Origin: Escherichia phage vB_EcoM_TH18
Direction: 5' to 3' (one strand)
Sequence record: ON075799
DNA: 64,000 nt
Numbering within the stretch: the first letter of the stretch is position 1; each line of letters opens with the position of its first letter. Made by a program: the position numbers and the translations under genes. The notes under the pieces are model-generated. The model was not told the origin of the DNA, did no database searches, and saw only the letters and a list, made by a program, of their open reading frames with translations. This document shows, piece by piece, positions 3,297 through 58,899 of the stretch.

Positions 3297-3360
3297 ACAG
3301 AATATCTCTGTCGCTTAACTTGTGTTCGTAGTATCTCACAAATTTTCAGTTTGTCAAGTG

Positions 3361-3389
3361 TTGACTTTGATTTTTTAGTTCTGTACATT
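3361..3389 (+). promoter_or_regulatory. sigma70-like promoter for rightward early block
   Basis: TTGACT-N17-TACATT in divergent intergenic region 3297-3425. Confidence 0.4.
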
Positions 3390-3425
3390 CCCCAGAGTTA
3401 ATGAAAGTTTTCTTAGAGGCCAGCT

Positions 3426-10768: not shown

Positions 10769-12769
10769 ATGATTATTCAAAGATCTGACAACAAAGTTCA
10801 GGTAACTGGGAACGTAGAAAGATACCAAGCATCAATTGCAATGAATCCTGAGACGTTCAGTATTCTTATCGACGGAATTTATAAAGATAAACCTTTAGCA
10901 GCAGTACGAGAGCCTCTCTTTAACGCTGTAGATGCCCATACAGAGGCAGGGTGTTCTGATAAACCAATCATCATCCACTCACCAACAGACTTGGAGCCTT
11001 GGTATTCTGTTAAGGATACAGGGTTAGGTATGGATCATGAGATGGTAACACGTACATTCATGATGATTGGTGAGTCCACAAAAAGAAACAGTAATGATCT
11101 GGTTGGTGCGAAAGGTATTGGATCAAAAGCACCTCTTGCAGTCACAGATATGTTCACAGTTGTTTCTGTTAAAGACGGAGTGAAAACAACATATTCTGTT
11201 CACAAAAACAGCGGAATACCAGAGGTTGTACCTTTATTCTCTTGTGAAACAACAGAGGAGAATGGTGTAGAAATTAAATTTAACGTAAACACTTGGGAAA
11301 CAGGAGTTTATCGTCAGGCCATTGTAAAATGCCTTCGCTATGCTAAATTTCCATATATTATTAATGATCCTTTTGTTAAAACGCAGATTGAAGATCGTAC
11401 TTATCCTGTTCAGTATCGTTATGAGGATGAAGAGACTGGCTGGGTTCTTGAGATGTATAGTAGCATGTCGAGCAACGCTGATAGTGTTGTTATCATGGGG
11501 CAACAACCATATCTCTCCGATTATCTCTCAACTCGTAAAGAACTGCCCATGATGACGGTATCTATCCCTATTGGGGATTGTAATGTAGATCCAGGCCGAG
11601 AATGGACAGTGGAAGGAAAGAATGACGGAGGATTCCGTGATAAACTTGAAAATTTTGTGACTAAAGCTATCCGACTCCGCGGAGAAGAAATCACAAAAGA
11701 ATTAAGCGATCTGCCAACTTTAAAAGCAGTTCTTGAACATATGAAGTATGTTGGTGGTTATTTCGCTACAAAGTATGGTGCTGCATTTATTGCAAATAAG
11801 TTCAAGAATTATACTGATGGTTCTTACATAGACCACTGTGAAACATATGGTGGCGAAGGCTCACGCCGTGGTAAGGATGAGAAATATTCATACGCAGAGT
11901 TGATGAATGGTCATCCACTGGTTTACAATGATGATCACAAGTATGTGCGCTCTAAATGTAACTGGCTTGCAGAGAAGTTCGGTAAGAGATCGTTTATAAC
12001 CGATGCTGATTACGCTCTGTCCTTATACAGTGATAAATTCTTTGAAGGGATGATTTTCAAGTTATCTGAGCTTGAAAAACGACCAGTGCAAAAAGCAGAT
12101 AAAAAGTATGGTGGCTATGGTTATTACGAACCTGGTCATAAAGTTTGGATAATTAACCAAGATGGCCTCGTAGATGTAACACGTATTTCCCGTGCTCAAT
12201 TCGAGGATATTGAGACGGCTATGGTCTACTGGGGTGGGCAGGTGAAAGGATTATGCCCGTTAGGATACGTTTCCAATCTTAGAACAGTTTGGAGAAAGCA
12301 ACCACCAACATTTCTTAAGAATCTTGGTGTAGCTGGTAAGTTATATATTGTGCCTTTAAACAGATCAAGTTGGCTGCCAGATGAGGCGCGGGTTATAACT
12401 GAGGAGGATATCCATGCTCTTGCAAAAACTAATCTTCTTGAATATCATTTATACCAAGAAGTTGGGAAAGATCATGAGTATCATAACATTGTTAAAGAGC
12501 TTAGCTATTTTGGTGTGGTGGTAGCTAGTTTCCCAAAATGGGAGATGAAGGTAAACATACCCAGTTATTATTCAGTCCCTGGCTACGAAGATAGCCGTGA
12601 GAAAGCATTAGGGATGATTGAGTCTCGGAAGAGAATTGGTAAAAAGCTGCTACAGATTAAGAAAGATCGCTACCCATTGTTAAAATACATTGATGTTAAG
12701 CATTTCAATACTCCAGAGATGCTAGAGTATCGTAAATTTATTGACAGCAAAGGAGAAAAAGATGAGTAA
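10769..12769 (+). CDS. rIIA: rIIA-like protein with N-terminal GHKL (Hsp90/histidine-kinase-like) ATPase domain
   Basis: Bergerat motifs 'EPLFNAVDA', 'DTGLGMD', 'GAKGIGSKA'; followed by rIIB-like gene. Confidence 0.6.
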   Translation: MIIQRSDNKVQVTGNVERYQASIAMNPETFSILIDGIYKDKPLAAVREPLFNAVDAHTEAGCSDKPIIIHSPTDLEPWYSVKDTGLGMDHEMVTRTFMMIGESTKRNSNDLVGAKGIGSKAPLAVTDMFTVVSVKDGVKTTYSVHKNSGIPEVVPLFSCETTEENGVEIKFNVNTWETGVYRQAIVKCLRYAKFPYIINDPFVKTQIEDRTYPVQYRYEDEETGWVLEMYSSMSSNADSVVIMGQQPYLSDYLSTRKELPMMTVSIPIGDCNVDPGREWTVEGKNDGGFRDKLENFVTKAIRLRGEEITKELSDLPTLKAVLEHMKYVGGYFATKYGAAFIANKFKNYTDGSYIDHCETYGGEGSRRGKDEKYSYAELMNGHPLVYNDDHKYVRSKCNWLAEKFGKRSFITDADYALSLYSDKFFEGMIFKLSELEKRPVQKADKKYGGYGYYEPGHKVWIINQDGLVDVTRISRAQFEDIETAMVYWGGQVKGLCPLGYVSNLRTVWRKQPPTFLKNLGVAGKLYIVPLNRSSWLPDEARVITEEDIHALAKTNLLEYHLYQEVGKDHEYHNIVKELSYFGVVVASFPKWEMKVNIPSYYSVPGYEDSREKALGMIESRKRIGKKLLQIKKDRYPLLKYIDVKHFNTPEMLEYRKFIDSKGEKDE

Positions 12770-37011: not shown

Positions 37012-37596
37012 TTAATCAACAGATGGTCTTAGAGGCCACTCTATGTTTGGGGCATCCTCTGTTTTAATGCTTAGTATTTCACAACGATACATCTTCAGTT
37101 TCTTAAGCGTGTCCTCCATGTGTTTCGGTAGTTTTTTACCTGTTACCTGTTCATAGTCCCCATATGTTTGGATATATTGACTTGCCCAAGCAATTTCCTT
37201 ATCCTTGCGGAGTTTTGCTTCCTGTATAGATCGAAAATAGGTATAAGCAAATTCTCCATCTTTAAATGCCACGTCACCGAGGTCATACTCAATGCCTTTA
37301 GGCAAATTTTCTACCGAAACAACGGCTATTTTCCATCCGCTGAAAGGAGTACACCCATCAAAACCTTCATAGCAAACGCAGCAAACCCTATCGTCGAGGT
37401 CCAGCGAAAGAAAGGCATATTTTCCCGGATCTATTTGGGAGTTCAATTCTTCTGCTATTTCATAATAGTCTTTCCCCGTGGATTCTTCGTAGAAAAAAGG
37501 GGCGAAAGGGTTAACTTCCAACAATCTTTTCGTGGCTCCTGTTGCATTATCAGGGAGGGGAGAATAAGGGAAAAATGGTCCAAATATTTTGTTCAT
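37012..37596 (-). CDS. hypothetical protein (possible tail fiber assembly factor)
   Basis: directly downstream of fiber gene; no motif. Confidence 0.35.
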   Translation of the reverse strand: MNKIFGPFFPYSPLPDNATGATKRLLEVNPFAPFFYEESTGKDYYEIAEELNSQIDPGKYAFLSLDLDDRVCCVCYEGFDGCTPFSGWKIAVVSVENLPKGIEYDLGDVAFKDGEFAYTYFRSIQEAKLRKDKEIAWASQYIQTYGDYEQVTGKKLPKHMEDTLKKLKMYRCEILSIKTEDAPNIEWPLRPSVD

Positions 37597-37613
37597 GCAA
37601 CTCTCCTGAATGA

Positions 37614-38708
37614 TTACACTCTACTTACGTTGTGCCAGACACCATTAACTTGTTTCTGGATGTATGCATAGTAAACCCCACCAATGTTGTCTGCTGAGTT
37701 TTTACCAACATCTTGAGGATAGATACCTGTCATAACTGCACCCGCTGGCGCTTGCCAGTTCCAAGATATTTCGTTACCACCGGGCCAGTACCATGTGTTA
37801 CCTGTTAATCTAACATCTTGAACACCACCTGTTTGGATATTGACATTGCCGTTACCATCTGCACCAACACCATTAACAGATCTTACGATATTTCTCCCAG
37901 CAACTGTAGCAGAGTTATTATTTACAATTAGTGCATTTACGTTTGCTGTCCCATTAACTCTTGCAGATGGTGTTGTTAATGAGCTTGTTGCTACAACAGT
38001 CTGACCTTGAATTTGTCCTGTAGCCGTCAAAGAGGATGTTCTTGTTGTGGTGAATGTTGCATTTGTGCCATTAACATTTGTTCCTTGTACAGTGCCTGTG
38101 GCAACAACATTTCCTGTTACTTTACACAAAGCCGCTGAGGAGCTAATAGCATTAAGCTCCATCATAGTAAACATCCCAGAGTTACCTGAAGGAGAGAATC
38201 GGAAACGTATAGAATCTACACCGTTTGTCCCTGCTGTTCCTGGATTATCTCCAAGAACAAAATCCCAGTACGTCCAGTCAGAAGCTGGATTCGTAGTTGT
38301 GATATACGCAGTATCTGTTTCAGAAGGTTGAAAATTCAATCTCGGCAATGACAAAGCTCCTGTCATTGTATCTCCCGTTACATTCACGTAACGGTTGTCG
38401 GCTTCTGATCTACTCCACACATCAAGGTTGATTCTGGATGTTTCCTTGTCAGCTAAATCAGACAGATTTTCACTTCTTCTTAAAAATCTTGTATCTAATT
38501 CAGGTATCTGATCTCCTGTAACATATTTTATCCAACTTGTCATCATATAAAGAACATAGTTAAATTCTTCACAAGCTGGTTTTTCTCCCATATCCCAACC
38601 TTTTAACCAAAGATCGTCAATAGGTCTTATTTTATTCTCCCCATGAGTATTAGGGAGAATCACATCTCCCGCTGCCCAAATCTCGATTGGTATACTTGGT
38701 ATAGCCAT
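37614..38708 (-). CDS. tail fiber protein
   Basis: 'VTGDTMTGAL' fiber motif, Thr/Gly/Asn-rich C-terminal region. Confidence 0.6.
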   Translation of the reverse strand: MAIPSIPIEIWAAGDVILPNTHGENKIRPIDDLWLKGWDMGEKPACEEFNYVLYMMTSWIKYVTGDQIPELDTRFLRRSENLSDLADKETSRINLDVWSRSEADNRYVNVTGDTMTGALSLPRLNFQPSETDTAYITTTNPASDWTYWDFVLGDNPGTAGTNGVDSIRFRFSPSGNSGMFTMMELNAISSSAALCKVTGNVVATGTVQGTNVNGTNATFTTTRTSSLTATGQIQGQTVVATSSLTTPSARVNGTANVNALIVNNNSATVAGRNIVRSVNGVGADGNGNVNIQTGGVQDVRLTGNTWYWPGGNEISWNWQAPAGAVMTGIYPQDVGKNSADNIGGVYYAYIQKQVNGVWHNVSRV

Positions 38709-38723
38709 AAAAGTATCTCCTTC

Positions 38724-40787
38724 TTAAACTTCTGGTGGGGTATCTTTTAAATACCCTTTCAATGCTGTATGCCCCATATGAAAGACTGCGGATTGAGAGT
38801 TGTGCACTGTTATAGAATCATGCATTACTTGTGGATACGCCCATATGTATTGATAAATATCTGGAAACTTAAACTCATTAAGAACAATGTTCCCTATAAT
38901 CATTTTCCAAAGATATTCTCTATAATTAGAATTAGGGTCAAATCCGTATAATGGTGCTAGCCCTTCGTCTGGAACAAATCCTGCCAGATAATGTATCTTA
39001 TCTTCTTTAAATTTTAAGACATCTCGCGGAATGGTGATGGCCTGGAATGATTTTTCCATTTTTCCTTGAAGTAACCAGTCATAGCACTCGGAGCAATAGA
39101 AATCAAAATTCTCAGGTGTATAACTACCACTAGGGAAATTTATCTTTTCCATAATACCATTACCAATAATGGATGGTAAGAACGGTAAAAGTGTTATTTT
39201 TGCATTAGGATAAGATTTTTTAAGATCAGCACCGAATTTTACCACTCGCTCTCCTAGACACTGTCTTAGAAAATCTACATACTCATCATAGGGCGTTCCG
39301 GTCTTAAAGTCATAAATTGTTCCCATGTCTTGAGCATACAATCCAGTCTCTTCATTAAAACGCGCTTTTGTAGTATAATCATACACACAAGGTAAATTTG
39401 TAGCAGTATTATACCACCACCAAGGTTCCCCTATCTGAATGATAACAACCTGGTTAACTTGTTCGCATGTGGCTGCTATTTTATTTATTACACTTTGGAT
39501 ATATTGCATACCCTCGTTAATATTAGGTGATAATACCCAACTTGGTGGTGTGTATCCTGTTTCAGCTAATGCATCATTCCAGTCGTGCTGAACCCACTCT
39601 GGAGGACAAACTGTACTCATCAACTCAAAACTAATAGAATTGATAACCTTATAACCATTTGCTCGTGTCAGTGCGAAATAGTTATTCATCCATTGTAGGG
39701 TTGCATTATTGACAGGGACATCTTTGTTCAGTTTCCATGCGGAGCTTTCCCAAGAGAACTCGTAATAATGCGACATACCATTATAGTGATTTATCATATC
39801 TCTATAACCGAGTTTTAAGCAGTTATCCACCACTCTCTCCGGTGTAAGATTATACATATCATCATAAGATGTACACATGCGTATATCATGAGCAGGAATT
39901 GTCAAATTATTAACTCTCATCATTGTATAGCCTGTATCAGGCTCTTTAAGAGTTATTTTCAACATAAGATTCTGATTTTCTTTAGGGACAATATCTTCTC
40001 CTTCTGCATACTTCTCAGATATCATAGAAAAGAAAAACTGATCCACTTGAGAGGTATCCACTGCCACGTCCACATCAGGACCAGATTTTAAATTTGAAAA
40101 ATCAAGTTTGATTGTGGCCCTTTTATAATCCTCGCTGATATCTTCAGCATAAGCGTACAGAGGGATATAATGGGTTGCCCCATCTAAAAGTTTAAGAGTT
40201 AATGTTGGGGTCAATTTCTCATTATTGAAATCAGGCATTCCGTCGCCCAACTCTATATCGAACCACAGTTTAGCGTTTCGAAGGTCTGTGTGATCTTGAA
40301 AAGAGATCCCTTTATGATCATACTTATCTTTTGTGCTCCAAATAACCCCTGCCAGACCACTGACAGTTCTATTAGTCATATAAGCTGTAAGTATATTACC
40401 ATTAGATATTATAGAGCAACTTTCTGTGGGTTGAGAATCAATTGTCCAATATTTAGGTAGAAACATTTTCTCTTCTTTTGTTCCCCATCCCAACTCAGAC
40501 ATGTCCTCCTTGGTGCTAATAACACATCTGGAAGCCAGCCTGTCTAGCCTTGCACCAAAAGACGGGTTACTCATTTTTAAAGTAAATTCCCTTGGTAATG
40601 AGTTTTTAGGATGTTGTTTTATCTCCACAGGTATTTGTACAGACTTTTCCCCTTTAGGAATTGTTGCCGTACCTACCTTGGGTGTGTAATCTCTTCCAGC
40701 AATAGCTGTGTTTGATATTGTTTCATAGTCAAAGCTAACAGCTACAGAGTCATCTTCTCTTCTGGCTGTGAAAATAGCCTCTGCCAT
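38724..40787 (-). CDS. tailspike/tail-associated protein with N-terminal Calx-beta-like domain
   Basis: 'DYETISNTAIAGRDYT...GEKSVQIPVEI' Calx-beta-like; 687 aa in fiber cluster. Confidence 0.5.
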   Translation of the reverse strand: MAEAIFTARREDDSVAVSFDYETISNTAIAGRDYTPKVGTATIPKGEKSVQIPVEIKQHPKNSLPREFTLKMSNPSFGARLDRLASRCVISTKEDMSELGWGTKEEKMFLPKYWTIDSQPTESCSIISNGNILTAYMTNRTVSGLAGVIWSTKDKYDHKGISFQDHTDLRNAKLWFDIELGDGMPDFNNEKLTPTLTLKLLDGATHYIPLYAYAEDISEDYKRATIKLDFSNLKSGPDVDVAVDTSQVDQFFFSMISEKYAEGEDIVPKENQNLMLKITLKEPDTGYTMMRVNNLTIPAHDIRMCTSYDDMYNLTPERVVDNCLKLGYRDMINHYNGMSHYYEFSWESSAWKLNKDVPVNNATLQWMNNYFALTRANGYKVINSISFELMSTVCPPEWVQHDWNDALAETGYTPPSWVLSPNINEGMQYIQSVINKIAATCEQVNQVVIIQIGEPWWWYNTATNLPCVYDYTTKARFNEETGLYAQDMGTIYDFKTGTPYDEYVDFLRQCLGERVVKFGADLKKSYPNAKITLLPFLPSIIGNGIMEKINFPSGSYTPENFDFYCSECYDWLLQGKMEKSFQAITIPRDVLKFKEDKIHYLAGFVPDEGLAPLYGFDPNSNYREYLWKMIIGNIVLNEFKFPDIYQYIWAYPQVMHDSITVHNSQSAVFHMGHTALKGYLKDTPPEV

Positions 40788-49017: not shown

Positions 49018-49036
49018 AGATTTTCCTCAATAAAAA

Positions 49037-49063
49037 AGCCAGGTTCCGAGAAGGAACCTGGCT
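49037..49063 (-). terminator. stem-loop (attenuator) upstream of tape measure gene
   Basis: 11-bp stem AGCCAGGTTCC/GGAACCTGGCT followed by T6 on minus strand. Confidence 0.4.
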
Positions 49064-49068
49064 TGAGA

Positions 49069-49311
49069 TTAACCTCTTCTACCTCGGCGCGACCTATTTG
49101 CAGCGGCGGCAGCATTGGCTGCACTTTGTTCCTCTCTCTCCTGTACGTCTTGGATAAACTCTTCAATATCAAGATATTCGTTCAGTTTAAGCAGGTAGGC
49201 CATGTCAGCAGACTCAAGTGAGGAATAAGACTCACCTTTAAAACTCTTCAGAGCACGACACCACAAATAATCGAACCAAGTCAATGAGCTATTTTTTCTT
49301 GCATAATTCAT
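49069..49311 (-). CDS. hypothetical protein (possible tail assembly chaperone component)
   Basis: 80 aa between chaperone-like gene and tape measure. Confidence 0.4.
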   Translation of the reverse strand: MNYARKNSSLTWFDYLWCRALKSFKGESYSSLESADMAYLLKLNEYLDIEEFIQDVQEREEQSAANAAAAANRSRRGRRG

Positions 49312-49346
49312 AGCTCTCAGGACAACTTTCGAAATATTAGACGGTG

Positions 49347-53350: not shown

Positions 53351-53415
53351 GAGAACTCCCGTTAAGGTATTTTACCACATTATTCAAGCAAAATCAATAA
53401 TTAGGAATACGATTG

Positions 53416-53934
53416 TCAATAATACCTGTGTTTTGGGTATCTCCGAGGAATACCGGGGACTCCTGTTTGAGGAACTATACCAGAAACATCAAACGGGCTT
53501 CTGGAGTTTGGATTGTTCTTGACACGCCAAAACTCATCCTGCCGCACACCACCCACAATAATCAAACCAGAGACACCATTCAGACAACTATTGACGTAAT
53601 CAGGGTTTTGCAGTAGCCAGTCCAGAAAATCTTTCCAGTTCTGGTATGACGAGCCACCTTTCACCTGTATTGTCTCATCACCTATCTTTTCCAATCTTTC
53701 TGTGATGGATGCCTCACCAGAATTTATCTCTTGAAGAATTAACCATCTTAACACAGCTACCATTGTGTTATAGACCACTTTCCACATATCGCAGGGCGTA
53801 GATGATGGATTAGGCCAGTTTGCTCTTTTTTTCTCCATCTCAAGGAATGCCATAATAACTTCATCAGGTAATGTCTCTGGGGATATTGACCCGAGCAGGA
53901 GCCTGATGTAATCAACAATTTCTTGGTCTGTCAT
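53416..53934 (-). CDS. head-tail connector-like protein (hypothetical)
   Basis: position. Confidence 0.35.
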   Translation of the reverse strand: MTDQEIVDYIRLLLGSISPETLPDEVIMAFLEMEKKRANWPNPSSTPCDMWKVVYNTMVAVLRWLILQEINSGEASITERLEKIGDETIQVKGGSSYQNWKDFLDWLLQNPDYVNSCLNGVSGLIIVGGVRQDEFWRVKNNPNSRSPFDVSGIVPQTGVPGIPRRYPKHRYY

Positions 53935-54006
53935 CTAACTCTCCATTCTATGTTACTTGTTAGTAACTATATTATCACAAAATACAATTTTTGTCATTAA
54001 AAACGC

Positions 54007-54034
54007 TTGACACGAAAAATTCCACAGGTAAGAT
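54007..54034 (+). promoter_or_regulatory. sigma70-like promoter for plus-strand moron
   Basis: TTGACA-N16-TAAGAT upstream of RBS GGAGG and ATG 54062. Confidence 0.5.
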
Positions 54035-54061
54035 AAGTACAACAATTGCTATGGAGGATTT

Positions 54062-54466
54062 ATGAAAAATATTTTAAAAATTACAATTGGCCTGTGCGTC
54101 TGTGCTGTTATTGCAGCGGGAACTCTCCAATATGTGAAAAAGAACCCAGACATTAATGATTATAAATCTGTCGAGGCAAGTTGGTTGTCGCCAGAAGAAA
54201 AAGATGAGGCAATCAGCCGTATTGTGCAATTATCTTGCGATAAAAGATTCAGAGAAGCATTTAAGCCAGACGTTATTGTTGTGTCATCAGGCTTTGAAGG
54301 CAGGATCGCAGAGCAAGCGGAAGCATATCAATATTTTGATGATGTCGCAATTATCTCAGGAAAACAATCTTACACTGGAAAATACATCTGTACTTTTTAC
54401 AAAGATGGGCGTGAACCGTATATTAATGCAAACTTGAATAAGGGAGTACAAGAACTCCTAAAATAA
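54062..54466 (+). CDS. small secreted or membrane-anchored protein encoded by an opposite-strand moron in the late region
   Basis: 134 aa, N-terminal signal-like 'MKNILKITIGLCVCAVIAAG'; own promoter and terminator. Confidence 0.55.
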   Translation: MKNILKITIGLCVCAVIAAGTLQYVKKNPDINDYKSVEASWLSPEEKDEAISRIVQLSCDKRFREAFKPDVIVVSSGFEGRIAEQAEAYQYFDDVAIISGKQSYTGKYICTFYKDGREPYINANLNKGVQELLK

Positions 54467-54467
54467 A

Positions 54468-54488
54468 AGACCCCGAAGGGTCTTTTTA
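54468..54488. terminator. bidirectional intrinsic terminator
   Basis: AGACCC-CGAA-GGGTCT followed by TTTTT; A-rich on the other side. Confidence 0.6.
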
Positions 54489-54746
54489 TTACGACATAAT
54501 ACCAGCGGCTTTCAACTTGGCAAGCAAAGCATTAAAATCACTTACCAACGTAGAGACATCTGAAGCCATAGAATCTGCTTGTGTTTGTGCTTTCTTAACA
54601 CCTCCTAATGCCGATTCCGTAGCCGCTGGAAGAACATAGCTATCTGAGCCTCCAGCAACAATATCTTCGATTTTCACAGATTTTCCAGTTTTTATATCAA
54701 TAAGGCTTGATGCATATACTTTACCAGCCACACCTGTAGTTGCCAT
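54489..54746 (-). CDS. small fiber-related protein (N-terminal module paralog)
   Basis: 'MATTGVAGKVYASSLIDIKTGK' parallels N-terminus of 57110..58360. Confidence 0.45.
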   Translation of the reverse strand: MATTGVAGKVYASSLIDIKTGKSVKIEDIVAGGSDSYVLPAATESALGGVKKAQTQADSMASDVSTLVSDFNALLAKLKAAGIMS

Positions 54747-54756
54747 AATTATCCCC

Positions 54757-56547
54757 TTAGTTGTTTAGATAAGAATATTGCAAGAAATATTTAAATTCGT
54801 GGACTTGTTCGTCCGCTCCTGCAATAGGAATGATTCCATTAAGTCCTGATAAACCGTCTCCACGAAGAAGTTTAGTTATTACCTTCGTCTTAGGATCAAT
54901 GGTATGCGTAGGGACTGTTGGTAAAATAAGCCATACAGCCACTGTAGGTTGCCCTGATCCGACAACACTTGGATATTCTGCATAGATATCATAATCAAGA
55001 TACGTACCGTCTTCCGTACAAGGTATCTCTGTCAAACGAACATCCACCATAACATCTGTGCTGCCAGCAGGTGATCTGTTCAAATAAACTGTTGTTTTCA
55101 AATATATAGAAGACCCTGATCTTCCTGCTGCGTTTTTCGCTGAAGGTATGTCACTATAATTGAAAGAGAAATTCCCAGATGTTGCTGACAACCTCATAGT
55201 CGGCTGAGGAGAAAATGGGATATTAAAGCTCGCTTGTTGACTTGAATCATCTGTCATTGTAAAAGTTAGTGTAACCTGTTGTGCACTATCTATTTCTTTA
55301 ACAACAGCATTAACAGATTTTATTGTTTGTCCATCAGCACCTTTAGGAATACCTAAGTTAAGAACTTGTGAAGGGGAATCACCAGTTATTGATGCGGTCG
55401 CCTGTTGCCCACTTTGCAAAGAGGAAACTGTGCCGATAGATAGTGAATAGGTGGCAGAACTTCCTCCAAGGTCTACCCAAGAAACAGGGGTACTAGGGTC
55501 TGAGCCTCTAATTGTATACTTAACACTACCATCCGCGCCATAAAACAAGATCAACTTACTTGCCGTTGCTGAAGTTTTATCGTTTTGCCAATTATCTAGC
55601 CATATTATTTCAAATACGCCAGAGTTTGCTGGGGATTGTATATGGGCATAATACCTCCCCGGCATGGTCTGATTGGCAAGAGAAGCGATCTCATCAATGT
55701 TTAGCAACGATAAGGTGACACCATCACTCGCTGCCATACCGTACCCAAAACTTCCCGGTATGGCAGCAACACCAGCCGTGCGATCATGAATATTCGCTTG
55801 TTTGGCAGTTAACAAATCATACCACACTGCTGGGTCACTTAGATTGTTACCACGGATCGTATATTTCATATGACCGTCTTTACCAAAAAAGAGAACCAGC
55901 TTTGTTGCTGTCTGGCTTGTTTTGTCACCCCAGCCATTATCCAGCCAGATAATTTCTGTTATTCCTGTCATTTCCTCCGATTTTGTGGTGAAAGTATAAT
56001 ACCTTCCCGGATGTAAGTTATGGGCAGAACGCGCAACATCACCAAGACTGTTAGCAATAAGTGAAGTTCCTCCAGGATTTGTCATTCCGTAGCCGAAAGC
56101 GCCAGGCAAAGCTGCAACACCAGGTGCAGAATCATAAAGCCATTCTTGCACTTTGGTAGGAGCAACATACAACCCCTCTTCTCCTTCAGAGGTTATATTT
56201 GTTAAAGCGTTTCCTTCTTTAGGAGAAATCGGAATATTTATTTCAGGTGCTGTTACATATAATGCTCCTTGCTTCAACTCCAGCAGGTTATTTGCAGCAG
56301 GACTCACCTTAACAGCTAACCCATTATCTCCAGCTTGGAGAGCATTATTTTCATCTTCTGCCACCACAACAACACCTTTAAGAGGTGTAGCTTCTCCCCC
56401 ATCACCTAATAATTTAAGCGTGAGGGTATCTTCCGTATGCAACTTAAATTTATCTCCGAGTGTACCGCCAGAAGTATCTATACTATAACCGTTAGGTAAG
56501 ATAACTTCAGCATTTACAACTTTATCTTTATAATCCATAACTACCAC
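54757..56547 (-). CDS. fiber / receptor-binding-like protein with internal tandem domain duplication
   Basis: two ~110-aa repeats '...PG(A/S)FGYGM...PGRYY...EIIWLDN...KYTIRG...'. Confidence 0.5.
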   Translation of the reverse strand: MVVMDYKDKVVNAEVILPNGYSIDTSGGTLGDKFKLHTEDTLTLKLLGDGGEATPLKGVVVVAEDENNALQAGDNGLAVKVSPAANNLLELKQGALYVTAPEINIPISPKEGNALTNITSEGEEGLYVAPTKVQEWLYDSAPGVAALPGAFGYGMTNPGGTSLIANSLGDVARSAHNLHPGRYYTFTTKSEEMTGITEIIWLDNGWGDKTSQTATKLVLFFGKDGHMKYTIRGNNLSDPAVWYDLLTAKQANIHDRTAGVAAIPGSFGYGMAASDGVTLSLLNIDEIASLANQTMPGRYYAHIQSPANSGVFEIIWLDNWQNDKTSATASKLILFYGADGSVKYTIRGSDPSTPVSWVDLGGSSATYSLSIGTVSSLQSGQQATASITGDSPSQVLNLGIPKGADGQTIKSVNAVVKEIDSAQQVTLTFTMTDDSSQQASFNIPFSPQPTMRLSATSGNFSFNYSDIPSAKNAAGRSGSSIYLKTTVYLNRSPAGSTDVMVDVRLTEIPCTEDGTYLDYDIYAEYPSVVGSGQPTVAVWLILPTVPTHTIDPKTKVITKLLRGDGLSGLNGIIPIAGADEQVHEFKYFLQYSYLNN

Positions 56548-57113
56548 CCAACTTTTATCCTTTGTAATTCCTCAACTGTAGAGGCTGAAAGCACTTGGTC
56601 TTTCATTTCTCGTTGCTTAGTGTATATTGAATCATTCTTAGTTGCCAACTCGGAAGACATAGCTACAACAAAATTTTCAAATTCAGAACTACTCATCTCA
56701 ACAGGTTTGTTATCAGCATCTCTCCAAATCACAGCTTGTTTAGCCGGAGATGCTTTTTGTGCTAATAATACTGGATAAATACGACATAAGGTTGCATTAT
56801 CAACATCATACCTTGCACCATTATAAGAAACAATAGTCGTAGAGCTTTCTTCCAGTTTTCTCCACTCTTTTATTTCTGATAACATCTGTTGCTTTAATGC
56901 CTCGATAAATTGAGGGTTTGCTGTATACGGGGCAATCTCTCCAAAACTACCAGATTGTAAGGAATCCCAAACTGCTTTCCCAGTTTCACTATAGTCGTTG
57001 CTAGAAGCGGTGTATGGGAGATAATCAGAAAAACCATTAAAAAGTACCAGACAATCAACGTCACCATTAAGAAGATATTGTGGAGACTTAATATCTTTAA
57101 TATCCAGCATCAT
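56541..57113 (-). CDS. hypothetical protein (fiber-associated)
   Basis: 190 aa between two fiber genes. Confidence 0.4.
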   Translation of the reverse strand: MMLDIKDIKSPQYLLNGDVDCLVLFNGFSDYLPYTASSNDYSETGKAVWDSLQSGSFGEIAPYTANPQFIEALKQQMLSEIKEWRKLEESSTTIVSYNGARYDVDNATLCRIYPVLLAQKASPAKQAVIWRDADNKPVEMSSSEFENFVVAMSSELATKNDSIYTKQREMKDQVLSASTVEELQRIKVGW

Positions 57114-58360
57114 GCGATCCTCATAAAAAGACCAATATAACCTGTATCAGTACCATTTTTATTGCTTGGTGAACCGGATAAGGCTATAAACGTACCTCGC
57201 TGTGTTTCAGTACTGTGTGTAACAGAAACTGGCGTACTTTGAAATGCACCTGTTGTGGAAACCTTACTATAAAGAGTTATACAGCCTATGCGGGAACCTG
57301 GGATGGTCTGACCACGAACAAGTTTTCTGTTTGAATCAGTGTTCGAAGCGCCAAGATACACTCCCAACATCACCCCTCCAACATCAGGACTTCCCCATGT
57401 GTTTCCTACGGTTGATTGTAAATAGGAGAATTGTCCTTTTATATTTACCCAATCACCATCAGCAAAACTGGTTAGTAAGCGATAATAATACAATTCACCA
57501 TTTATGCCATAAAAATAGGCATGTTTACTATTTTTTGCTGCTTGCTCTGCATTCTCTGCTGGATATGGTGACAATACCTCAACCATACCTTTAAAAGTAA
57601 TCCCTTCAATAATACGTGTGTCACCTGAAGATAAATCTTGGTGAACAAGGTAACGACCAGGTTGTGCACTTCTCAACCAAGAAACCCATTCCTCTGGCCC
57701 ATTCTTCTCTTGAAAAACAACTTCTTTCTCGGCAGGGATAAACGCCCCAAAACCAAATGCCCCTGGTAAAGATACTACCCCATCTGTGGCATCATAGATA
57801 TCGTTTTGTACACCTTTTGTGGCAGCGGTTTTTATACCCAAGTAATCAAGAACCCCAGTTTTTGAATCTTGCCCTATGATAACTCGACCAACAGCAGAGA
57901 GATTTGCCAAAGCCATTACGTTTTTATCACTGAAATAAGCTAATTTATTTCCAGCAGTAATCAATCCTGACAAAGATGTCAGTATTTCACTCAACGGTTG
58001 TTTACCAGCAAGAGCGTTAGTGATTGTTGTTGCAAAGTTCGGGTCATCGCCTAATGCCTTCGCTAATTCATTGAGAGTATCTAATGTTTCAGGCGCTGAG
58101 TCAGCCAATTTTGCAATTAAACCCTTCACATATTCTACATTAGCTATTTCCTTTCCAATAGCATCATCCAACGGTGTTGGTGCTTGAGGGTTCCCTGTAA
58201 AGATAGGACTGTCTAAAGGAGCTTTGGATGCAATAAGATCCGTTATATCTTCTGGAATATTCCCACCACCCAACTCATCAAAATTTATTTTCTTTCCTGT
58301 TTTCTGGTCAACCAATGCACGACCATAAATTAAACCACCAACACCTGTTGTTGCTGTCAT
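57110..58360 (-). CDS. fiber protein
   Basis: 'DSPIFTGNPQAPTP' motif and a copy of the PGAFG...PGRY domain. Confidence 0.55.
   Translation of the reverse strand: MTATTGVGGLIYGRALVDQKTGKKINFDELGGGNIPEDITDLIASKAPLDSPIFTGNPQAPTPLDDAIGKEIANVEYVKGLIAKLADSAPETLDTLNELAKALGDDPNFATTITNALAGKQPLSEILTSLSGLITAGNKLAYFSDKNVMALANLSAVGRVIIGQDSKTGVLDYLGIKTAATKGVQNDIYDATDGVVSLPGAFGFGAFIPAEKEVVFQEKNGPEEWVSWLRSAQPGRYLVHQDLSSGDTRIIEGITFKGMVEVLSPYPAENAEQAAKNSKHAYFYGINGELYYYRLLTSFADGDWVNIKGQFSYLQSTVGNTWGSPDVGGVMLGVYLGASNTDSNRKLVRGQTIPGSRIGCITLYSKVSTTGAFQSTPVSVTHSTETQRGTFIALSGSPSNKNGTDTGYIGLFMRIA
58173..58213. repeat. 41-bp exact DNA repeat (copy 2) shared with 35514..35554
   Basis: identical 41-mer inside second fiber gene. 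Confidence 0.8.
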
Positions 58361-58389
58361 TGCTTAACTCCTTGAAAAAAAAAAACATT

Positions 58390-58899
58390 TTATGATGCTT
58401 CTAATTCAGATTTAAGATCAGCAATCATCTTTTCAAAGGATTTGTTTTTAGTTAGTGTAACACCTTTAGAAAGTGCAAACTCAACTAATCTATCTTTACT
58501 ACCTTTTTTATCAGCTTCATCATTCAGAGACATTGCTTCCTCTAAAATCAGATCAATAGATAGATTTTCTTTATCAGCCTTTTTATCTTGCACTTCTACA
58601 ATCTTGGCATCAACTACCTTACCCAAGTTTTTCGGACTAGGGATATCTTTGTTGAAGAACACGATATAAGATCCCATACGAATAGTAGAGTGCTGTGCAT
58701 CAACATCTAAACCAGACAGCTCTGCAAGAGCAGTGAAAAACTCAACAGTGTTTCTGAATGCTTTGTGTTGTGTTCCCACACATAAACCGTTCAAAGGTAG
58801 TCTTGCTGAGACCGCTGCATTTAATTGCGGGGCGTATGCACCAAAAAACTTAAATAATTCCACCTTATTAGGGAAAATACGATAATTTTGATTCGCCAT
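58390..58899 (-). CDS. hypothetical protein
   Basis: 169-aa ORF downstream of capsid gene. Confidence 0.45.
   Translation of the reverse strand: MANQNYRIFPNKVELFKFFGAYAPQLNAAVSARLPLNGLCVGTQHKAFRNTVEFFTALAELSGLDVDAQHSTIRMGSYIVFFNKDIPSPKNLGKVVDAKIVEVQDKKADKENLSIDLILEEAMSLNDEADKKGSKDRLVEFALSKGVTLTKNKSFEKMIADLKSELEAS

Follow-up and report, generated by a model that had tools for sequence, protein, structure and literature searches.

Several small envelope proteins protect bacterial cells against phages or bacteriocins, and those most relevant to the gene described here differ in where and how they act. The lipoproteins Llp of T5 and Cor of lambdoid phages block protein receptors of the FhuA type; both are small exported proteins encoded by autonomous genes beside receptor-binding or fibre genes, and llp adjoins the T5 receptor-binding protein gene. 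T4 Imm and Spackle (Sp) and P1 Sim are small phage envelope proteins that act after adsorption, at the periplasm or inner membrane; the fold of Sp, like that of T4 RI, is helical. The colicin M immunity protein Cmi is a 117-aa protein in which a transmembrane anchor (residues 1-23) precedes a periplasmic sheet wound round a long helix, its disulfide is both essential and DsbA-dependent, and its gene lies on the strand opposite to the 'attack' genes under its own promoter (PMC8469651). In the Drexlerviridae, exclusion genes adjoin the genes for receptor-binding proteins (RBPs), and the established receptors of the Vequintavirinae are glycans, namely ECA and the LPS core (PMC8594841).

We analysed a 64,000 nt stretch of DNA from the rV5-like Escherichia phage vB_EcoM_TH18 (ON075799), an Avunavirus relative in the Vequintavirinae. 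The stretch, referred to here as the window, contains an opposite-strand gene reminiscent of these systems. The gene (54062..54466, plus strand) starts with ATG, encodes 134 aa plus a stop codon, and is a member of PHROG 11434, 'membrane protein'. It is the sole free-standing plus-strand gene in a ~31.6-kb array of virion genes encoded on the minus strand: among the plus-strand ORFs of 100 aa or more listed from 32187 to 63759, all others overlap a longer minus-strand gene. By Pfam and PHROG assignment, the virion genes encode baseplate J, Dit-like, tape measure, tail assembly chaperone and tube proteins, as well as a neck terminator, a head completion protein and fibres. The ORF scan and the Pfam and PHROG assignments agree with a sequence-only reading of the same DNA, which had described a lone plus-strand gene within ~30 kb of minus-strand virion genes. 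The GC content of the gene is 37.5% vs 40% for the window.

Divergent from the gene lies a head-to-tail adaptor gene (53416..53934, minus strand; PHROG 2663), the first of the neck/tail operon, whose rV5_ev147 homologue is annotated as the Ad1 adapter and whose homologues in metagenomic loci match the Pfam family PF26075 (Phage_Adaptor_PhiTE). On the other side, and convergent with the membrane-protein gene in every locus examined, is a head-fibre-like gene of 85 aa (54489..54746, minus strand), the last of the fibre module, which matches the C-terminal region of PF11133 (E = 1.4e-17); the adjacency to fibre genes pointed out in the sequence-only reading is thereby borne out.

We also noted several features of the surrounding region in their own right. 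The PF11133 match of the 85-aa ORF is to the C-terminus of the phi29 head fibre, and the first ~32 residues of its product are 45% identical to the N-terminus of a 416-aa tail fibre (57110..58360, minus strand); the stretch common to the two may be a virion-docking motif on two different fibres. Both ORFs lie in a variable fibre/depolymerase module (54489..58899) between the prohead-protease-inhibitor/major-capsid genes and the adaptor gene, the content of which across Vequintavirinae genera is collagen-like fibres, an EPS depolymerase or, in rV5, nothing. Farther along the minus strand, a 329-nt gap between the tail-assembly-chaperone and tape-measure genes (49018..49346), where no ORF of 100 aa or longer is listed, has a terminator-like hairpin at its end and could hold a frameshift extension of the chaperone. 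The window is identical to the record of phage 18-1-2 (OK136180), with matching coordinates, and phage Av-05 (Avunavirus, Vequintavirinae) is 88% identical to it over the gene region. The records nearest to the window are 77-79 kb long (79,447 bp for OK136180) vs 120,938 bp for Av-05, and the 18-1-2-type records may be incomplete assemblies.

Upstream of the gene, the promoter scan found a sigma70-type promoter (54007..54034, plus strand) with a -35 element TTGACA (54007-54012), a 16-nt spacer and a -10 element TAAGAT (54029-54034). The scan returned 24 sites vs 21.8 expected in shuffles, a count at which a scan hit is by itself no evidence for a promoter, and it is conservation that provides the evidence here. 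Perfect TTGACA-N16-18-TAnnnT sites number only six on both strands of the window, 54007..54034 among them. In an alignment of the upstream regions (127-135 nt) of nine phages from three genera, the block TTTGTCAT-AAAAAC-CTTGACA was invariant in all nine, the sequence of the 16-nt spacer varied freely, and a TAnnnT -10 element, mostly preceded by TGn, was kept in register. This combination of an invariant -35 element, a variable spacer and an in-register -10 element is the pattern predicted for a functional sigma70 promoter, and conservation across the three genera sustains the earlier proposal of a TTGACA-N16-TAAGAT promoter at 54007.

The adaptor operon has a divergent promoter (53969..53997, minus strand; ATGACA-17-TAATAT with an extended -10 TGn), which was also found by the scan, as TGATAATAT, and is conserved in the nine phages. 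It is of a late-type class, resembling the TGnTAAAAT elements of other late operons in the window, which in turn match the rV5 late motif TggTAaAAtA (PMC3606486). The extended -10 sequence TGnTAAAAT(A) recurs at 53377, 46586, 43029 and 36199 (minus strand), in each case in an intergenic position upstream of a late operon. A second divergent intergenic region (3297..3425) contains back-to-back -35 boxes, TTGTCAAGTGTTGACT, like those at 53992..54012. The promoter of the plus-strand gene combines an invariant consensus -35 element with a weak, variable -10 element and is of a class unlike the late TGnTAAAAT promoters, from which we infer that the gene would be read by the unmodified host sigma70 holoenzyme from early in infection. 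This timing comes from promoter class, which may not equal timing given that sigma70-like promoters were described throughout the rV5 genome by its authors (PMC3606486), and a literature search did not find Vequintavirinae transcriptomes.

The sequence GGAGG, read as a Shine-Dalgarno element (54053-54057, plus strand), lies 4 nt 5´ of the ATG, and a purine-rich GGAG/GAGA box is aligned with it in all homologous loci; the position of the start codon is likewise common to all homologues. Nei-Gojobori estimates of dN/dS were 0.02-0.18 for the whole gene, 0.04-0.15 for the exported domain and 0.05-0.45 for the membrane segment. The conservation of 54062..54466 and these values mark it, as judged from sequence comparison, as a genuine gene under purifying selection, and on these grounds a spurious ORF could be excluded.

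At its 3´ end, a 9-bp hairpin, AAAAGACCC-CGAA-GGGTCTTTT (54465-54486, both strands), with T-runs flanking it on both strands, begins within the stop codon of the plus-strand gene, lies 2 nt past the stop of the convergent gene and fills the whole 22-nt gap between the convergent stops. Folding of the plus strand gave -11.4 kcal/mol (z = -3.2), and the minus strand folded better, with a UUCG loop (-14.9 kcal/mol, z = -3.6). Pairing in the hairpin reaches 98% across homologous loci, where the loops vary and one A-U/G-C exchange is compensatory; the PVP-SE1 record annotates a terminator here on each strand. Given its folding on both strands and its position relative to the convergent stop, the hairpin probably is a bidirectional intrinsic terminator common to the plus-strand gene and the convergent fibre operon. 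The hairpin noticed earlier is real and conserved, and as a terminator it would probably serve the fibre operon as well as the gene. Convergent late transcription would either be halted at the common hairpin or run antisense into the plus-strand gene.

Hydropathy analysis of the product suggested an N-terminal transmembrane signal-anchor rich in Gly, Ala, Ser and Thr (codons 7-25; 54080..54136, plus strand). In 15 of 15 homologues, the N-terminus consists of a short basic MK...K stretch, 19-22 uncharged residues and then Tyr-x-x-Lys and Pro, and Gly/Ala/Ser/Thr residues make up 37-55% of the membrane segment in all homologues. The AlphaFold2 model has a (transmembrane) helix at residues 2-27, and the PVP-SE1 record reports one TMD for the homologue gp66 by both TMHMM and Octopus. 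A run of 19-22 uncharged residues flanked by Lys has the length of a membrane anchor and not that of a typical signal-peptide core. Export is predicted, as the description of a signal-like N-terminus had implied, but the hydrophobic run in the 15 homologues is of anchor length. No lipobox was matched in the window protein, Cys12 and Cys14 are unconserved, and the N-terminal segment is free of Cys in most homologues, in line with the earlier remark that a canonical lipobox is missing. Lacking the lipobox cysteine and any conserved N-terminal Cys, the protein cannot be a Lol-sorted outer-membrane lipoprotein, and a lipoprotein identity was rejected. The product is predicted to be a type II (N-in, C-out) inner-membrane protein facing the periplasm.

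The predicted periplasmic domain (codons 28-134, 107 residues; 54143..54463, plus strand) is acidic, with a computed pI of 4.85. W41 and the motifs SSWLSxEEK, CDxxFR and YICTxYKxG are invariant in the family, as are exactly two cysteines, C59 and C110, both of which are in the C-terminal domain. With an 11-sequence alignment as input, AlphaFold2 gave a model with pLDDT 87.7 and pTM 0.73 (pLDDT 35.4 in a single-sequence run), in which a long helix (residues 44-64) packs on a five-stranded antiparallel sheet, a predicted fold of the cystatin/NTF2-like class. C59 falls within the long helix and C110 in a central strand of the model; from their invariance and secondary-structure positions, a C59-C110 disulfide probably stabilises the domain. 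Foldseek against BFVD matched only a family member and against the PDB returned nothing below E = 0.05. A profile of the 11 sequences had one unrelated match among all PDB chains at E <= 10, and the product matched no family in PADLOC, NCBIfam (E <= 1) or Pfam (E <= 0.1). We noted that three GenBank records (OK136180, OK181858 and OK181861, for phages 18-1-2, 19-1-2 and 24-2-1) label the gene 'adenosine deaminase'; this candidate was rejected, there being no such Pfam or NCBIfam family match and the model fold being neither a TIM-barrel nor a CDA-type deaminase.

The gene matches PHROG 11434 over its full length (E = 5.7e-65; residues 1-134 on profile positions 1-134 of 134), a family of the moron/host-takeover category annotated 'membrane protein'. 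It is present in 65 phage records with hosts in Escherichia, Salmonella, Cronobacter, Enterobacter, Klebsiella, Raoultella and Proteus, and full-length homologues are 38-97% identical, all of 132-136 aa. Named homologues, which are 38-84% identical over the full length, are PVP-SE1 gp66 ('hypothetical membrane protein'), Av05_0081, 4MG_064, GAP31_206, KB57_068 and CPT_Mydo_232. The slot between the adaptor and head-fibre-like genes and the opposite-strand orientation are kept in Av-05, PVP-SE1, 4MG, GAP31, KE23, Mydo, KB57 and Ro1, and two to three metagenomic variants, one only 39% identical, also have the gene at the identical slot. Every Avunavirus, Seunavirus and Mydovirus locus examined carries it. 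The slot is empty in Vequintavirus rV5_ev147, Certrevirus phiTE, Plateaulakevirus 2L372D, Henunavirus pEp_SNUABM_01 and UPEC06, all of which have the adaptor gene. Identity of the adaptor protein to that of the window is 75-82% in carriers (three genera), 70.6% in the non-carrier pEp_SNUABM_01 and at most 55% in the other non-carriers. The simplest reading of these sequence comparisons would be a single gain in the common ancestor of Avunavirus, Seunavirus and Mydovirus.

Outside these phages, no homologue was found in plasmids, E. coli genomes or GTDB species genomes, and IMG/VR and other viral contigs yielded none beyond the same phage clades. A phmmer search of 1.84 billion representative proteins recovered only four true clusters, all of 132-136 aa; two long repeat proteins also returned were judged spurious, their multi-stretch matches resting on short motifs. 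A donor homologue thus was not found among representative proteins, plasmids, E. coli genomes or GTDB genomes. The suggestion in the sequence-only reading that the gene is a moron holds insofar as it is an autonomous unit present in some relatives and absent from others, but not as a recent insertion, since it has become fixed in three genera. By its structure the gene would be classed as a moron, old and fixed, in virulent phages. It is a feature of an ordinary kind, an accessory cassette conserved among phages and belonging to a family that had been catalogued but not characterised.

Superinfection exclusion or envelope modification in the broad sense is a plausible role for this cassette, the product of which is dispensable for the virion and found in only part of the subfamily. 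As a tentative explanation, to which we give less than even weight, we propose by analogy that the product is an early protein of immunity or superinfection exclusion, a periplasmic binder tethered to the inner membrane, with its site of action at the periplasm or inner membrane and not at an outer-membrane receptor. According to this proposal, a cassette of promoter, ribosome-binding site, ORF and shared bidirectional terminator would have been fixed at the boundary of the fibre operon and the neck-tail operon in the ancestor of Avunavirus, Seunavirus and Mydovirus. The host sigma70 RNA polymerase would transcribe the gene from the start of infection, and the product would consist of a short Lys-containing N-terminus, one transmembrane helix and the 107-residue acidic periplasmic domain. 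The tethered domain would neutralise an incoming periplasm-acting component, for example the genome-delivery apparatus of a related superinfecting phage; some other envelope target would be an alternative within the same explanation.

The more specific claim is possible but somewhat more doubtful, namely that PHROG 11434 is an unrecognised immunity or exclusion family, expressed early from a host-type promoter that opposes late transcription, whose tethered, disulfide-stabilised domain prevents related myoviruses from delivering their genomes once adsorbed, or neutralises another periplasm-acting attack, and which has converged with Cmi in architecture. A diversifying pattern, as seen where exclusion proteins co-vary with receptor-binding proteins, was not observed in the periplasmic domain, which counts against exclusion, and the gene may lie beside fibre genes simply because an operon boundary was its site of insertion. 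PADLOC, Pfam, NCBIfam and PDB searches gave no sequence link to Cmi/YebF, Imm, Sp or Sim, and neither PVP-SE1 gp66 nor any NTF2-fold exclusion protein turned up in a literature search.

Two other readings, both of which we consider unlikely, also place the protein in the inner membrane. The product might be a lysis-timing regulator similar to the T4 antiholin RI, with a signal-anchor(-release) N-terminus and a periplasmic sensor that binds a holin or senses superinfection. RI is small and bitopic, and the window protein resembles it in size and topology; moreover, the Gly/Ala/Ser/Thr-rich membrane segment recalls signal-anchor-release domains, and phages of this group carry rIIA/rIIB homologues, according to the KE23 annotation. 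The alpha+beta domain of the window protein is at odds with the helical RI, however, the gene is distant from the endolysin and spanin genes (annotated elsewhere in KE23), and rV5, phiTE and Henunavirus, which presumably lyse alike, are missing it; a non-exhaustive search did not identify a T-type holin partner. The other reading, to which we assign a similarly low probability, is that the protein inhibits a host enzyme or defence factor in the periplasm, where its cystatin-like domain would act on, for example, a protease of the envelope or an enzyme of glycan assembly; the consequence, itself improbable to the same degree, would be host takeover, counter-defence or an altered supply of the ECA/LPS receptors. 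A tethered periplasmic protein would be well sited for such interference, but the cystatin inhibitory motif QxVxG is absent from the protein and no target is identifiable. In addition, cystatins, NTF2-like and VirB8-like proteins scored equally well in the fold comparison, making the fold unspecific and hence uninformative on inhibition.

Other lysis functions were considered separately. A spanin was rejected, as the periplasmic domain is globular alpha+beta and the 22-nt and 127-nt flanks contain no partner ORF; in the relative KE23, the annotated Rz-like spanin is at another locus. A holin role also was rejected, the patchy phyletic distribution arguing against an essential holin. In KE23 (Seunavirus; 37185..40438), the rIIA/rIIB homologues are beside the endolysin gene, and a window ORF of 666 aa (10769..12769) is near KE23 rIIA in length (2001 vs 1992 nt, stop included), a likeness of length alone. 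The Mydo genome announcement makes no mention of lysis or membrane genes.

A receptor blocker of the T5 Llp/Cor type, in which the protein would reach the outer membrane and plug a phage receptor, had been suggested by the layout, an opposite-strand gene with its own promoter and adjoining fibre genes, much as llp lies beside the T5 receptor-binding protein gene and exclusion genes beside RBP genes in the Drexlerviridae (PMC8594841). This Llp-type comparison did not stand up and is the least probable of the readings weighed here. It is largely refuted by the missing lipobox and N-terminal cysteine, and the hydrophobic segment is of membrane-anchor length. The known receptors of the subfamily are glycans and not an outer-membrane protein that could be plugged (PMC8594841), and the product has no similarity to the Llp/Cor families, PHROG 11434 being its sole PHROG match and Pfam giving none, nor is it related in sequence or fold to any other known exclusion protein. 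Scarcely more credible are a spurious ORF and a role in the virion or its assembly as part of the neighbouring fibre module. The gene always co-occurs with the convergent head-fibre-like gene, as a fibre-module component might, but its product is predicted to be exported and membrane-anchored, it is on the opposite strand, and its promoter class is unlike that of the late genes. Furthermore, the PVP-SE1 record flags gp60 and gp61 as structural but not gp66, and phiTE and Henunavirus have fibre/depolymerase modules without the gene.

Phages of the genera Seunavirus, Mydovirus and Avunavirus (PVP-SE1, 4MG, relatives of KB57, and Av-05) have been used or proposed for biocontrol and therapy against Salmonella, Klebsiella, Cronobacter and E. 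coli. Through mutual exclusion, a conserved accessory gene that acts on the envelope could alter the behaviour of such phages in cocktails, and it could also have effects on the timing of lysis or the condition of the host envelope. Should the gene encode an exclusion or immunity factor, the few characterised exclusion systems of virulent phages would gain a new fold and a mechanism that operates after adsorption. The present result is a cleaned-up annotation, that of a predicted type II inner-membrane protein with a periplasmic cystatin/NTF2-like domain.

Compared with its own family, the window gene shows no difference in kind: the PHROG 11434 relatives, including PVP-SE1 gp66, share its slot, orientation, promoter and terminator. 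At the level of fold, the predicted domain resembles cystatins and the NTF2-like periplasmic domains of VirB8/TraE/DotI, with sequence identity of only 6-11%; unlike VirB8/TraE/DotI, it is smaller and has no type IV secretion context. The likeness to Llp and Cor is that of a small exported protein encoded by an autonomous gene beside fibre genes, and ends with the absence of a lipobox and the presence of a full-length membrane anchor. T4 Imm and Sp and P1 Sim, which have neither a sequence nor a fold relation to the alpha+beta window protein, offer our proposed working analogy for action after adsorption at the periplasm or inner membrane. Membership of the Cmi/YebF group found no support in sequence or profile similarity (PDB profile search, E <= 10; Pfam, E <= 0.1). 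In architecture, however, Cmi (PDB 2XGL, YebF-like) and the window protein (117 vs 134 aa) both combine an inner-membrane anchor, a sheet round a helix and a pair of cysteines, as predicted for the latter, and their genes are alike in opposite-strand placement and possession of their own promoter. By this analogy, which is one of architecture only, Cmi would be the nearest documented architectural and genetic counterpart of the window protein.
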